A stretch of DNA of 64,000 bases from Myxococcales bacterium (GTDB lineage Bacteria > Myxococcota_A > Polyangia > Fen-1088). This document shows positions 33,810 through 56,508 of the stretch, in pieces. Made by a program: the position numbers and the translations under genes. The stretch covers positions 416,057 to 480,056 of the forward strand of contig JAGTJU010000004.1 in assembly GCA_022184915.1 (NCBI GenBank), read 5' to 3'. Under the pieces are notes generated by a model. It searched no databases, had not been told where the DNA came from, and saw only the letters and a program-made list of their open reading frames with translations. How positions within the stretch are numbered: position 1 is the stretch's first letter; the number at the start of each line of letters is the position of its first letter.

Positions 33810-33990
33810 TGAGACCTCCTGGATTTGCGCGTCCTTGTCTAGCGTCCAGGGGGAAAAATGCCAATAGCAAAGTGCGGCGGAGGGGGGGAGGGGGGCTGCC
33901 TACATCGGGCAGGCGGGCCCGGGACCCCTCCGCAGGGGCGAACAAGTTGAACGGCGGCTTGCTGGTCGTTACCATCCGTGCCAAGCCATC

Positions 33991-34635
33991 ATGATGACCG
34001 CACGCGCTCACGGCCGGGCAGAAGCGAAGGTGAAGAGCGCTGGTCTGCAACCAGTACCCGACGTTTACATATCGACGGACATCGAGACGGACGGGCCCAT
34101 CCCCGGGCCGTTTTCGATGTTGTCGTTTGCCTTCGTCGAGATTGGAACCTTCGATGGGGCGCGCCTCTGCCGACCGCAGACGCCGCGCACCTTCTATCGG
34201 GAGCTGCGGCCCATTTCTGATCGCTTCGAGAACGAGGCGTTGGCGGTAAACGGGCTGGACCGTGGCAGGCTGCTCCGTGAGGGAACGGATCCTTCCACCG
34301 CGATGGAGGAGGCGCGCCACTTCGTCTCCGAACTGGCCGGGGGAGGAACTCCTGTTTTGGTGGCGTATCCGCTCTCGTTCGATTGGAGCTTCCTCTACTG
34401 GTACTTCGTGAGTTTTGGGGGCAGGTCGCCGTTCAACCATTCCCGGTGCTTCGACTTGAAGACGGCCGTGGCTGTAAAGGGGCGGCGCACGATCCTACGC
34501 GCGGGGCGGGATCAGCTGCCGGCTTCGCTGCAGAGTCGGATGAGTCACACGCACCACGCGTTGGACGATGCGATGGAGCAGGCCGATATTTTCGCACGCG
34601 TTTTCGATTGGGACGGTGCAGATGACGACGAATGA
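33991..34635 (+). CDS. DEDDh-type 3'-5' exonuclease (DnaQ/RNase T-like) of unknown role
   Basis: 214 aa. Exo I ISTDIETDG, Exo II YPLSFDWSFL, Exo III HHALDDAMEQ. Its 3' end overlaps the next gene by 14 nt. Confidence 0.65.
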   Translation: MMTARAHGRAEAKVKSAGLQPVPDVYISTDIETDGPIPGPFSMLSFAFVEIGTFDGARLCRPQTPRTFYRELRPISDRFENEALAVNGLDRGRLLREGTDPSTAMEEARHFVSELAGGGTPVLVAYPLSFDWSFLYWYFVSFGGRSPFNHSRCFDLKTAVAVKGRRTILRAGRDQLPASLQSRMSHTHHALDDAMEQADIFARVFDWDGADDDE

Positions 34636-35662
34636 CGAGTTCTTCACCGAACGAGCGAAGAATACGGCCGCGAGGGTGGCGGAGTGGTCGGCGGCATTCG
34701 AGGAGGAGCTTGGGGTCGACGGCAGGTCGGCGTTGTCCGACGGATGTGTGTACGCGGTGGGGTCTGCCGGAAGGGGCGAGCTTGGTGGGTCAAGTGACCT
34801 CGATGTCTTCATTGTGACGAACGGCGAACCATCCCGAGTGAATGAAGCGCTCGTGCAGGCCCCGCTCATAAGGATGATGCGGCGTTTCAAGTTGCCGCCC
34901 CCCTCTAACGACGCCACTTTCTTGAGACTGCATGGCGCCTCAGAGTTGGAGCACCGCCTCGGCGCCGTGAATGACGACTCGCCTCAGAACACGTTCACGG
35001 CAAGAATGCTCTTGCTTCTCGAGAGCAGGCCCTTTTACGGCCAGGAGGCCTATAAAGCCTTGCTCCGACGGGTTGTTCAAGCGTATTGGCGAAACGAACA
35101 AGCTCACGCGGATCATTACCTCCCCATGGTGCTGGTCAATGACATCGTTCGTTACTGGCGGGTCGTCCTGCTCAATTACGAAGCCAAGTTCGCCAGCAAA
35201 GAGCGTGAAGCCAAGACGTCAGGGGAGCTGGAGCAGGTGCGGCTGGCCAAGTGGCTGGCGAGCTACAAGCTCAGATTCGCCCGCTGCATGACGTGTTACT
35301 CGATGATCATCGTGCTGCTTTGGCAAACGAGAGAACAAGAGGGCAAGCTCCCTCACGTAAGTCAAGACATGATGCTCGAGCTGATCGGCCTGACACCCGT
35401 GCAGCGACTACAAGCCGTTCTGGCGGAAGCGACGGGCGCTGGTGCGGGTGGTGTTGTCACTCTCGTGGATGAATTGCTCGCGCTGTATGCCGGCTATCTC
35501 GCGTCGCGCACGATGCGGGATGACGAGTTGAAGGGCAAATTGCGCGACCGCTCGAACGGACCGTCTTTGTTCGAACGCGCAGACACGTTCGGCGACAAGA
35601 TGGCGCAATTGGTGCAGGAGCTGGGAAGGTCATCGCGATTGATCCGATATGTGGTGGTCTGA
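34622..35662 (+). CDS. Pol-beta-superfamily nucleotidyltransferase with helical C-terminal domain (CD-NTase/OAS/SMODS-like)
   Basis: 346 aa from MTTNDEFF. GSAGRGELGGSSDLDVFIV matches the GS...(D/E)hD nucleotidyltransferase signature. A ~280-aa helical domain follows. Confidence 0.6.
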   Translation: MTTNDEFFTERAKNTAARVAEWSAAFEEELGVDGRSALSDGCVYAVGSAGRGELGGSSDLDVFIVTNGEPSRVNEALVQAPLIRMMRRFKLPPPSNDATFLRLHGASELEHRLGAVNDDSPQNTFTARMLLLLESRPFYGQEAYKALLRRVVQAYWRNEQAHADHYLPMVLVNDIVRYWRVVLLNYEAKFASKEREAKTSGELEQVRLAKWLASYKLRFARCMTCYSMIIVLLWQTREQEGKLPHVSQDMMLELIGLTPVQRLQAVLAEATGAGAGGVVTLVDELLALYAGYLASRTMRDDELKGKLRDRSNGPSLFERADTFGDKMAQLVQELGRSSRLIRYVVV

Positions 35663-35693
35663 CGCAATGACTGAGAGCTTCTGGCGCCACATG

Positions 35694-35972
35694 AAGCTCC
35701 GCGTTGTCGGCGCACTTTTCACGCTTCTGCTCGTGGCGAATGGCGGCTGCATAAAGGCGGCGCCATCGGCTCCTGTCGATGTGGCCCCGCCAGCGCTTCC
35801 ACCTACCGCCGCTGTTGTGCCTGCGGATGGTTTCCAAGATACTGCACCTCCGTCGGACTCTGTCCCGGCACACCCCATCTTCAACTCATGCGTGCTTCAT
35901 GCGGGGGACGCGTCTGTTCGTCGCCGACAGCCATTGTTGCCAGACGGCAGCCTTGGCCCAGAGACCACGCTA
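35694..35972 (+). pseudogene. 5' part of a Cys-rich lipoprotein gene interrupted by IS630 (the reading frame resumes at 37475..37822)
   Basis: MKLRVVGALFTLLLVANGGC signal/lipobox-like N-terminus. The frame reads into the IS terminal repeat and stops. After removing the IS plus one TA, the same frame continues for ~115 codons (…CIQVKRRVTPCDGF…). Confidence 0.4.
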
Positions 35973-54556: not shown

Positions 54557-55086
54557 GAGCCAGGCCTACTTGGGGCCTCTCACCTCCGCTCCGGAGAGAC
54601 GGTCTCGGCGCTGTGTGAGGAGTACAGGATTCAGCCGAGCGTGTTCTACCAACGGCAGAAGGCTGCCTTGGAGAACCTGGGAGCCGCGATCGAACCGTCG
54701 GGTGATGAGACCGCGTCTCGGCCATCTACGCATGCGGCAGGGAATCGCTGGTGCCAGCGGCCTCCGTCGAGGCCCTGCAGCGCGCGTGGGGGGCTGGGTT
54801 CGCGGCCCAGGACGAACTGGGACGGCTGATGCTGATCACCGTGCACGGTGGGGGCCGCCCAAACGGACCGTGGGTCCGAGCAAAGCTCCGAGCAAAGCTC
54901 GACGCCCGGAATCGAAAACGCGGGCTGGGCGCCCCGGGAGCGCATCGAGTCAGCCATCCTGGAGTTGCCGCGGCACGTGGCGCACCTTGCCGGAGATCGC
55001 CAAGGCCGACCAGGGCCTACCGAAAAAAACACCATCCCTTGTCACGCAACCCGCGCCTGCCTCGTCATGAGGGGGAGGTGGCAGAC

Positions 55087-55653
55087 ATGTGGAAGCGATT
55101 CGCGTTGCGCAAAATCGAGGCGTTCGAGCGGCAGTTTGGGTACGATGCCCGGTACATGAAGGAGCTCTTGAAGACGAGCCCCTCGGCGTTTCTGAAGCTC
55201 TCCCGCCTCCAGGCGATTTCGGCCTTCCGGCGGGGCGTGCCCCTCGAAGCCTGGTACGCCGCCAAACTCGTGGGCGCCCTTGCCGAGGATTGCGGCCCCT
55301 GCGCTCAACTCGTGGTCGACATGGCGCGGACGCATGGGGTGCCCCTCGAGGGACTGAAGGCCGTGGCTGAGGGCAGGGAATCCGACATGGCAGACGAAGT
55401 CAGGCTGGCGTTTCGCTACGCCCGCGCGGCCGTGTCCCGTGAACCCACCGATGAGTTGCGCTTCGAGGTCGTGCAGCGGTGGGGGCCCGAAGGGCATGTG
55501 TCCCTGGCGCTCGCTTTGTTCTCGGGTCGGGTGTATCCCATTTTGAAGTACGCTCTCGGTCATGGGCAAAGCTGCTCGCGCCTTCGCTTCGACGACGCAA
55601 GCCGCACGGTGGTGGTTCACGCTCATGCAGAGCCGCGGGCGCGCATGTCATGA
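55087..55653 (+). CDS. carboxymuconolactone decarboxylase (CMD/AhpD-like) family protein
   Basis: 188 aa from MWKRFALRK. GGAGG Shine-Dalgarno upstream. Helical AhpD-like fold with AEDCGPCAQL Cys pair. Confidence 0.55.
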   Translation: MWKRFALRKIEAFERQFGYDARYMKELLKTSPSAFLKLSRLQAISAFRRGVPLEAWYAAKLVGALAEDCGPCAQLVVDMARTHGVPLEGLKAVAEGRESDMADEVRLAFRYARAAVSREPTDELRFEVVQRWGPEGHVSLALALFSGRVYPILKYALGHGQSCSRLRFDDASRTVVVHAHAEPRARMS

Positions 55654-56364
55654 TCACGAAAGCCCTCGACGAAGCCCTGGCATCCGCGTTCGAGCATCAT
55701 CGCCCGTCGCTGATGGGACTGGCCTATCGCCTATTGGGATCGACATGACGTCTCCTACGCCCTGCTCCTGACCCTGGACCGGTTGACACCCACCGAACGA
55801 GCCGCGTTTCTGCTTCACGACGTGTTCGATCTATCATTTTCGGAAGTGGCGGAGGCCATCTCGCAGGAAGAGGCGACCTGTCGCCAACTCGCCGCGCGTG
55901 CACGCCAGCGTCTGCTGGCACTCGGGCCCCGCTTCACTCCGCCACCCGGGGACGCGAAACGCCTGGTCGAGAGCTTTTTGTACGCCGTCGCCACAGGCGA
56001 TCTGGGCAGCGTCAAGAGTCTGCTGTCGGAGGATGCCGTGATGTACTCGGACGGCGGCGGCAAGGTGCAAGCCGCTTTGAAGCCCGTCGAGGGGGCCGAT
56101 CGCATCAGCCGCTTCTTCGTTGGCATTCGTGCCAAGTACCCATCGGTTAGGGTTGCCTTCCGTGCCGTGTGGGTCAACGGCCTGCCAGGCATCGTGCTTT
56201 ACCGTGAAGGCGAGCTGGACCAAGTCCTGGCGTTCCAGTTCGATCCCACCGGGGCGATCGAGGCGATCTACGTCACCCGGAATCCCGAAAAGCTCGCGCA
56301 CACCTCGCTTCGCCCTGGCGGAGCCCCGATCGACGCTCGCGGTCCCGCACCGCTGTCGAAGTAG
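55650..56364 (+). pseudogene. ECF41-type sigma factor (SnoaL-like C-terminal extension), disrupted by an internal deletion/frameshift
   Basis: N-terminal FEHHRPSLMGLAYRLLGS then an immediate stop. A different frame continues with region 4 (LTPTERAAFLLHDVFDLSFSEVAEAI) and the ECF41 C-terminal extension (DGGGK, YVTRNPEKL). Regions 2.2 to 3 are missing. Confidence 0.6.
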
Positions 56365-56508
56365 GGCGCGAAACTACAGGCACCCATAGGCCTGCTCCAC
56401 ACGCTCCCCTCGGCTGAGCCTCGTCGTTCCTCCTGGCCCTGCGCTCTGCCCTGAAGATTCTCATGCGACTTTCCGCGAAACGGTCGTCTCAGTGAGCAGA
56501 GAGACTGC

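Follow-up and report, generated by a model that had tools for sequence, protein, structure and literature searches.

The 64,000-nt stretch of DNA analysed here (hereafter the window, in whose numbering all coordinates are given) belongs to an uncultured bacterium of the Myxococcales, class Polyangia (assembly GCA_022184915.1, contig JAGTJU010000004.1, positions 416,057 to 480,056), and the region of interest is the interval from 33.8 to 56.4 kb, next to the mdh-sucC-sucD-ndk operon. This interval is a mosaic in which foreign genes lie among duplicated and broken ones, together with three transposable elements (Table 1), and it holds only two intact candidate modules: a nuclease-helicase, and a gene pair encoding an exonuclease and a nucleotidyltransferase (NTase) of the adenylyltransferase type. 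An initial annotation, made from the sequence alone, had listed one insertion sequence (IS) of the IS630 family, an IS66 with a nested IS3, two AbiE remnants, the nuclease-helicase with a pseudogene copy, the exonuclease-NTase pair and several disrupted genes; all of these elements were located, and the disrupted genes are at least eight, namely AbiEii in both of its copies, the DUF4411 gene, a gene of about 310 aa, the second helicase copy, a lipoprotein-like open reading frame (ORF) split by IS630, the tnpA-tnpB region of IS66 broken by the nested IS3, and two sigma factors. As for the position of the interval, it had been placed after the mdh-sucCD-ndk operon; since these genes are encoded on the minus strand, it lies upstream of mdh, in divergent orientation.

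Table 1. Features of the interval and its left anchor, with the block-by-block map of the duplication (copy 1 / copy 2); HTH, helix-turn-helix; ECF, extracytoplasmic function
Feature	Position in window	Strand	Remarks
mdh-sucC-sucD-ndk operon, left anchor outside the island	30374–33809	−	typical LDH-like Mdh translation; Mdh GC3 0.87
Cap18-like DEDDh 3′-5′ exonuclease, 214 aa, intact	33991–34635	+	opens a conserved two-gene module
GlnE/DrrA-type NTase, 346 aa, intact	34622–35662	+	14-nt overlap with the exonuclease gene
Lipoprotein-like ORF, 217 aa, split by IS630	35667–35972 (5′ part); 37473–37822 (3′ part)	+	no family match
IS630-family element, 1500 bp	35973–37472	−	DDE_3 and HTH domains; TA target duplication
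IS630 transposase ORF	36294–37406	−	DDE_3 (Pfam)
Nuclease-helicase, 694 aa, intact	38225–40309	+	N-terminal PD-(D/E)xK nuclease and DUF2075/SLFN-group-3 SF1B helicase
Duplication, aligned block	38915–39936 / 50395–51414		92.4% identity
Duplication, copy 1 only	39937–40237 / deleted		301 nt
Duplication, aligned block	40238–40344 / 51414–51519		89.7% identity
Duplication, unrelated block	40345–43158 / 51520–51603		2814 nt / 84 nt
Duplication, aligned block	43159–43940 / 51604–52384		97.2% identity
2.8-kb lower-GC segment	40345–43158	+	GC 0.616; in duplication copy 1 only
~310-aa gene, frameshifted	40448–41390		in the 2.8-kb segment
Secreted ORF, 328 aa	41400–42386		in the 2.8-kb segment; no family detectable
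DUF4411 (PIN-like) gene, frameshifted and truncated	42461–43254		profile positions 6–54 and 51–112 in two frames
AbiEii toxin remnant, copy 1	42904–43218	−	N-terminal ~94 of ~299 profile positions only
AbiEi, copy 1, full length, orphaned	43215–43871	−	Pfam AbiEi_4, AbiEi_3_N, AbiEi_1
IS66-family element, 4443 bp including the nested IS	44029–48471	−	TnpC and TnpB domains
IS66 tnpC	44177–45901	−	
IS66 tnpB	45930–46382	−	stop-to-stop ORF
IS66 tnpA	48104–48412	−	
IS3-type element within IS66, between tnpA and tnpB	46369–48084	−	rve and HTH_32; weak HTH_Tnp_1
Lowest-GC cassette	48480–50394	−	GC 0.564
ORF of ~150 aa	from near 48503	+	in the lowest-GC cassette
GspG-like pseudopilin-domain protein	49131–49523	−	follows the HExxH gene; T2SSG E = 5.8e-6
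HExxH-motif protein, 257 aa	49511–50284	−	HEATH and HEALGEY motifs read from the translation
Nuclease-helicase pseudogene copy	50395–51519	+	lacks the first ~230 codons; 301-nt internal deletion; frameshifts
AbiE segment, copy 2	51604–52384	−	AbiEi full length (51658–52314); ~18 AbiEii codons left
Right part, without mobile or defence genes	52385–56400	+	GC 0.639; no PADLOC match
ECF sigma factor region-2 fragment	52762–53109	+	read from the translation
PG_binding_1 protein	52935–54107	+	Pfam
Membrane ORF	54104–54556	+	no family match
Further ORF	54751–55653	+	no family match
SigJ-like sigma factor, most of region 2 missing	55.6–56.36 kb	+	Pfam Sigma70_r4_2, SnoaL_2

Regarding composition, GC is 0.680 in the left core (9.5–33.8 kb), 0.626 in the interval and 0.647 in the right flank (56.4–64 kb); the lowest 1-kb window of the left core has a GC of 0.631, and 62% of the interval's windows fall below it. 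The three low-GC patches noticed at the outset exist, with values of 0.604 (35.6–38.1 kb), 0.608 (40.4–42.4 kb) and 0.540 (49.2–50.4 kb), but low GC is not confined to them: the exonuclease and NTase genes have 0.602 and the IS66/IS3 pair 0.611, and the segments of the interval form a mosaic that ranges from 0.54 to 0.68. Gene GC at third codon positions (GC3) is 0.78–0.88 in the core and 0.60–0.76 in the interval, with the exception of the helicase (0.83) and the two AbiEi genes (0.85–0.86), which are host-like.

The duplicated unit is about 2 kb long, non-tandem, and consists of the nuclease-helicase gene convergent with AbiEii-AbiEi. In the helicase pseudogene of copy 2, the fragments that match SLFN-g3 fall in two frames, and neither attC-like sites nor repeats were seen at the junctions of the duplication or of the cassettes. 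As for AbiE, it is an abortive-infection system built as a type IV toxin-antitoxin couple, AbiEi/AbiEii, and the resemblance to it is good for the antitoxin: AbiEi, with its N-terminal winged helix-turn-helix and its C-terminal domain, is full length twice (PADLOC AbiEi, E = 2.7e-75 over profile positions 10–200 of 201 for copy 1, and E = 1.8e-74 for copy 2), and, in the manner of canonical AbiE operons, the start of AbiEii overlaps the stop of AbiEi. The toxin instead departs from the known system and is never full length; in copy 1 it is matched over Pfam positions 1–47 of 238 and PADLOC positions 3–93 of 299 (E = 2.1e-33), and in copy 2 the homology stops about 54 nt into the gene. AbiEii being truncated in both copies, AbiE has been inactivated twice; neither copy can work as AbiE, and what is left are orphan antitoxin/regulator genes.

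Regarding the mobile elements, the one of the IS630 family has the features expected of its members, a DDE_3 transposase, terminal inverted repeats (44 nt, 84% complementary) and a TA duplication, the target being CTAG; sister strains keep the empty CTAG site (contigs L088 and L089), and in them the 217-aa lipoprotein-like ORF is unbroken (L088:2126–2779). The IS66-family element has tnpA, tnpB and tnpC, inverted repeats of 25 nt (88% complementary) and an 8-bp target duplication, GGTGCTCT, that reads as perfect on both sides; its domain matches are DDE_Tnp_IS66 (E = 1e-56) and TnpB_IS66 (E = 1.1e-26), while the tnpA-like ORF was assigned by eye only and has no Pfam match. Within the nested IS3, orfA (47608–48093, HTH) overlaps orfB (46535–47812, rve); its TG...CA inverted repeats are 18 nt long and only 72% complementary, and no clean target duplication is present in the sequence at its ends. 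Its right end is supported by contig L090 of the same strain, which ends 29 nt beyond 48084, and another same-strain contig, L001, ends 28 nt into IS630; both stop where contigs are expected to stop, at the passage from unique sequence to a multi-copy repeat. A tRNA-Asn of 93 nt proposed by ARAGORN at 46209–46301 (minus strand) lies within the tnpB ORF of IS66, has no Rfam tRNA match and is almost certainly a false positive.

The region is structurally different, at two or more points, between strains that are 99.4–99.95% identical, as follows from the empty IS630 site and from a different junction at 48480. As for the former, contigs L088 and L089, from other sequencing runs, are 99.4% identical to the window from 33.2 or 33.5 kb up to 35.97 kb, and then proceed straight to 37472 at 97.1% identity; position 35971 is joined directly to 37472, which is the exact empty site of IS630. 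The identity thus falls from 99.4% to 97.1% across this site (33.2–38.95 kb of the window), which may be a recombination boundary between strains. As for the latter, contigs L091 and L092, from two other runs, follow the window at 99.95% identity from 50433 down to 48480 and then carry 29 nt of different sequence, which correspond neither to IS66 nor to its reconstructed empty site. In these contigs the repeat end CTGTCGCCACCGGGCCGGAGGGGTACCACT, absent from the 64-kb window, abuts the exact last base of the IS66 target duplication; it may be the end of a further IS that went in at almost the same position.

The intact nuclease-helicase matches from end to end the PADLOC family PDC-S41 (E = 5.4e-161), one of the candidate families (PDC) collected by "guilt-by-embedding", and Pfam PF09848 (E = 6.8e-52). 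Its 30 homologues, from several phyla, are 53–59% identical to it, the closest non-self one at only 57%, and in all of them D109, E122-x-K124, the Walker A motif (288–295, GxxGxGKT) and the Walker B D385-E386 are invariant. In the AlphaFold model (predicted local distance difference test, pLDDT, 73) residues 68–166 adopt an alpha-beta-beta-beta-alpha-beta arrangement, a nuclease-type topology, and Foldseek with the helicase core retrieves Upf1, IGHMBP2, SLFN11 and Sen1; a sequence search in the PDB gave no meaningful match, and in the plasmid collection only distant homologues were found, at no more than 27.6% identity. One homologue, on a 238-kb contig, stands alone beside a HigBA pair. The closest analogues in architecture are Nhi of Staphylococcus epidermidis (SERP2475) and the "Nhi-like" protein of Millman et al. 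(bioRxiv 10.1101/776245, 10.1101/2022.05.11.491447), with which the protein shares an N-terminal PD-(D/E)xK nuclease and a DUF2075 superfamily 1B (SF1B, Upf1/Dda-like) helicase in one polypeptide; unlike Nhi, it has 694 residues against the 470 positions of the Nhi profile, it belongs to the separate candidate family PDC-S41, and the PADLOC Nhi model aligns with it only over the Walker A region (E = 4.8e-5), none of the aligned stretches passing by itself. By analogy with Nhi, it would couple ATP-driven SF1B translocation to PD-(D/E)xK cleavage of invading DNA.

As for the exonuclease-NTase pair, the exonuclease matches the CBASS-type 'Effector/Exonuclease' model of PADLOC (PDLC00753, E = 2.7e-35; CBASS, cyclic-oligonucleotide-based antiphage signalling system) and the E. 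coli Cap18 structure (PDB 7T2S, E = 2e-19), together with weak Pfam RNase_T/Rv2179c-like matches. The NTase matches PDC-M70A of PADLOC over nearly its full length (E = 1.4e-28) and has an active-site motif of the GlnD/GlnE type; it is not matched by the PADLOC cyclase models, a sequence search in the PDB gave no meaningful match, and no homologue was found in the plasmid collection. The two genes travel together: in 26 of the 58 metagenome loci with enough upstream sequence, an exonuclease homologue lies directly upstream of the NTase on the same strand, the two genes of the pair overlapping or abutting, and almost all of the paired loci have an NTase at least 35% identical to the present one. 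In the metagenome loci (L094–L140), the exonuclease is consistently the more conserved of the two (55–74% identity, against 35–65% for the NTase). NTase homologues of these loci below about 35% identity occur without the exonuclease, which suggests a distinct, paired NTase subfamily.

The gene neighbourhoods of the NTase, or of the pair, elsewhere are mixed: among about a dozen contexts sampled, three are defence-like (Mrr-like PDC-S02; Cas4-like protein and PDC-S39; Lamassu LmuB), and the other neighbours include a GH113 hydrolase, a Mur ligase, a glycosyltransferase and a strictosidine-synthase-like protein, so that a defence role is possible and not strongly indicated. An apparent swap of the gene beside the pair (Mrr in one locus, M23 in another; L084 and L085) was discarded, the two contigs being colinear and 99.9% identical and the difference one of gene calling only.

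The pair was compared with three known arrangements. In CBASS, Exo/Cap18 breaks down the linear dinucleotide intermediate of the cyclase (bioRxiv 10.1101/2022.01.04.474952, 10.1101/2025.03.04.641389), and the pair recalls this system in that a Cap18-family DEDDh exonuclease is encoded beside a nucleotidyltransferase; the reading of the pair as CBASS was however rejected, the fold being that of a GlnE/DrrA-type adenylyltransferase and not of a CD-NTase, that is, not a cGAS/DncV-like cyclase, and no effector, HORMA/TRIP13 or Cap2/3 genes are present at the locus. PDC-M70 is a two-gene PADLOC candidate cassette (Payne et al., bioRxiv 10.1101/2024.01.29.577857): the NTase matches its gene A, whereas gene B is matched by neither the exonuclease, the downstream 217-aa ORF nor a 77-aa ORF. 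Finally, the NTase is only 12–13% identical to the adenylyltransferase domains of GlnE and of Legionella DrrA (SidM), and it differs from these proteins in being a stand-alone enzyme of 346 aa, with no sensor or target-binding domains, and in its obligate pairing with the exonuclease among its closer relatives. By analogy, the NTase may perform a GlnE/DrrA-like nucleotidyl transfer, and the Cap18-like exonuclease may trim the nucleotide product or an intermediate. That the two form a previously undescribed system, in which the exonuclease thresholds or reverses the nucleotide product or modification made by the transferase, is a tentative proposal that we regard as rather unlikely; its role may then be in immune or stress signalling, or in the control of protein AMPylation. 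No literature was found on the pairing of a Cap18-like exonuclease with a GlnE/DrrA-fold transferase.

The remainder of the interval consists of lower-GC cassettes and of the right part. In the ~310-aa gene of the 2.8-kb segment, alignment with homologues places the N-terminal 59 residues in another frame than the remainder; its family is rare, with 91 clusters among 1.84 billion representatives. In the lowest-GC cassette, the 257-aa HExxH protein has only 10 homologues in 5.8 billion proteins, and together with the GspG-like protein it may represent a toxin-type or secreted metallopeptidase pair; these two genes (49131–50284, minus strand) have the lowest GC of the window, 0.53–0.56. The initial annotation had recommended the ORFs without assignment as material to be mined for defence systems, and this did not bear out: the ORFs starting at 40584, 41400, 48479, 49511, 37551, 54104 and 54709 had no match in Pfam, NCBIfam, PHROG or PADLOC, and one of them is a frameshifted pseudogene.

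Concerning the left anchor, the closest Mdh proteins come from Polyangia metagenome-assembled genomes. Scanning 185,579 species genomes with Mdh yielded 80 loci, all of which retain the operon, two of them together with genes past ndk; the order mdh-sucC-sucD-ndk is kept in loci L002–L007 with 66–93% amino-acid identity. Past ndk, in the window, two large adjacent paralogues (25527–30142, minus strand) have repeated MopE-type Cu-binding motifs, one of them also an FGE-sulfatase domain; both are conserved in relatives L004 and L005, at 46–49% identity. Within 10 kb, none of the 80 loci has a gene of the island or of the right flank, and the relatives whose Mdh is 80–92% identical keep the operon and have nothing in common with the window upstream of mdh; their own upstream genes differ (DUF1232; GGDEF-FHA with a radical SAM protein; an IS91-type Y2 transposase), which is consistent with a variable locus. 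The attempt to define the borders by synteny, as had been suggested for the island, thus failed in the absence of any common gene upstream of mdh or in the right flank, and the relatives are too distant for an empty site to be obtained from them.

Elsewhere in the window, a classical integrative element occupies 3382–9523, outside the interval: the last 49 nt of a tRNA-Lys (3525–3573) are repeated at 9475–9523 with 98% identity, a tyrosine integrase gene (3578–5131, minus strand) directly adjoins the tRNA, and the ~6 kb between the repeats have a GC3 of 0.70–0.78 and ORFs without family match. At 800–2173 (minus strand), a 291-nt direct repeat of 77% identity (878–1168 and 1568–1858) falls in two neighbouring ORFs, each about 230 aa long, which are probably tandem paralogues. 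At 59509–63813, an S8 subtilase, a 375-aa ORF and a radical SAM/SPASM enzyme stand side by side, with a GC3 of 0.74–0.79, below that of the core; they may form a peptide-maturation cluster.

Defence islands and variable accessory regions are a general concept for bacterial chromosomes, and the interval resembles them in its atypical composition, in having defence-type and toxin-antitoxin-type genes clustered together with IS, in its pseudogenes and in its strain-level indels. An active and well-stocked defence island, in which functional anti-phage systems accumulate and new defence systems are to be expected among the hypothetical ORFs, appears nonetheless improbable. The full-length PDC-S41 helicase, the PDC-M70A match of the NTase, the CBASS-type effector model of the exonuclease and the strong AbiEi matches speak for it, as do the homologues found beside HigBA, Mrr-like PDC-S02, Cas4-like/PDC-S39 and LmuB genes, and IS and strain variation are typical of such islands (three IS in 22 kb here, with a GC of 0.626 against 0.680). 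The scan with defence models, run on compositionally plausible ORFs of at least 100 aa (those of IS and pseudogenes aside), found however no cluster of two or more validated systems and in fact no complete one: all that it returned was AbiEi, with no usable AbiEii beside it, and the candidates PDC-S41 and PDC-M70A. The PDC families are candidates only, gene B of PDC-M70 is missing, the NTase falls outside the CD-NTases, few defence-type genes are more than remnants, the DUF4411 gene and one of the hypothetical ORFs are frameshifted, and all other ORFs are without matches in the four collections named above. The hotspot described at first was extended to 56.4 kb, and its last ~4 kb (52.4–56.4 kb) hold no defence or mobile genes and carry ordinary regulatory and cell-wall genes. 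What stands of that hotspot are the IS elements, the atypical composition, the duplication and the strain differences; a complete recognised defence system is what it lacks.

The alternative of a single mobile element (genomic island, integrative and conjugative element or prophage remnant) inserted whole beside mdh is very improbable. Composition is atypical continuously from about 34 kb, and this genome does take up such elements, as witnessed by the one with integrase and tRNA-Lys at 3.5–9.5 kb; the integrase, tRNA and att repeats that characterise an integrative island are however all in that element and none bounds the interval, where profile scans found no integrase, recombinase, conjugation or phage structural genes and where no real tRNA or flanking direct repeats occur, and the mosaic composition points to several events. 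The statement that an island was "inserted" beside mdh is not supported, no empty site, att repeat or integrase having been found, and placing the right border at 56.4 kb is an arbitrary choice. It is just as hard to credit that most of the mosaic arose in assembly, from misjoined strain variants or repeats and from sequencing-error frameshifts. The source is a metagenome-assembled genome, and repeats of 92–97% identity and multi-copy IS are classic causes of misjoins; against this, the source contig is 806 kb long, and four stretches of the window are reproduced at 100% identity by Logan contigs, three from run SRR17687159 (32072–35999, 39649–43216 and 48113–50433) and one from SRR32583971 (49041–50633). 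Contig L174 covers 39649–43216 at 100%, and the two frameshifts and the two ends of the 2.8-kb segment are all reproduced in it. The 5′ region of the helicase is confirmed by contigs from other runs, and the junction between cassette and pseudogene (50394/50395) by contigs L090–L093; this confirmation does not extend to the junctions at 43940–44029 and 52384.

In conclusion, the interval consists mostly of defence and toxin-antitoxin remnants and is an ordinary variable region, an IS-ridden accessory locus of an already known kind and not a rich new defence island; we consider it likely that it is a chromosomal accessory region upstream of mdh that was built up piecemeal and is now largely decaying. 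Its history may have begun long ago, with the acquisition of the PDC-S41 nuclease-helicase convergent with AbiEi-AbiEii, which would have had time enough to reach a host-like GC3. This module would then have been doubled, by non-tandem duplication or by a second acquisition, the copies being now 3–8% apart; copy 2 would have lost the 5′ end of the helicase, 301 internal nt and nearly all of AbiEii, and copy 1 would have retained the whole helicase and lost two thirds of AbiEii to the 2.8-kb lower-GC segment with its frameshifted genes. Further lower-GC cassettes, the exonuclease-NTase and the HExxH/GspG-like pairs, would have come in later, and the latest insertions would be IS66, IS3 within it, and IS630, which is still polymorphic among strains.

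Several points weigh against this account and should be noted. The order of these events is one that we infer, and the anti-phage activity of PDC-S41 and of the exonuclease-NTase pair is putative only, the neighbours of the pair elsewhere being mostly housekeeping genes. Part of the region is old and not recently acquired, given the host-like composition of the helicase and AbiEi and the difference between the copies. The flanks had been described as uniformly high in GC, which holds for the left core only; in the right flank the GC3 of the genes stays at 0.74–0.75 as far as 62 kb, and no sharp right border can be drawn from composition: the atypical region may extend further right, or the contrast may in part be ordinary variation between genes. 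None of the relatives found has an empty site for the whole interval, so that both borders are provisional and insertion at this locus is only a possibility. Finally, SRR17687159 may be the run behind the source assembly, and its contigs would then be only a re-assembly of the same reads.

Overall, the region is of little weight in itself and serves as a documented case of defence-gene decay in an uncultured myxobacterium, with antitoxins left without their toxin, a helicase copy turned pseudogene and IS elements nested in one another. The PDC-S41 nuclease-helicase would be a third sequence lineage of the Nhi architecture, and it merits a bench test. The most interesting item of the interval is the exonuclease-adenylyltransferase pair, which has no characterised member and merits a bench test as well; it may link AMPylation-type enzymes to exonuclease control, and the two-gene system, if true, would extend the 'exonuclease checkpoint' logic of CBASS to a non-cGAS transferase.

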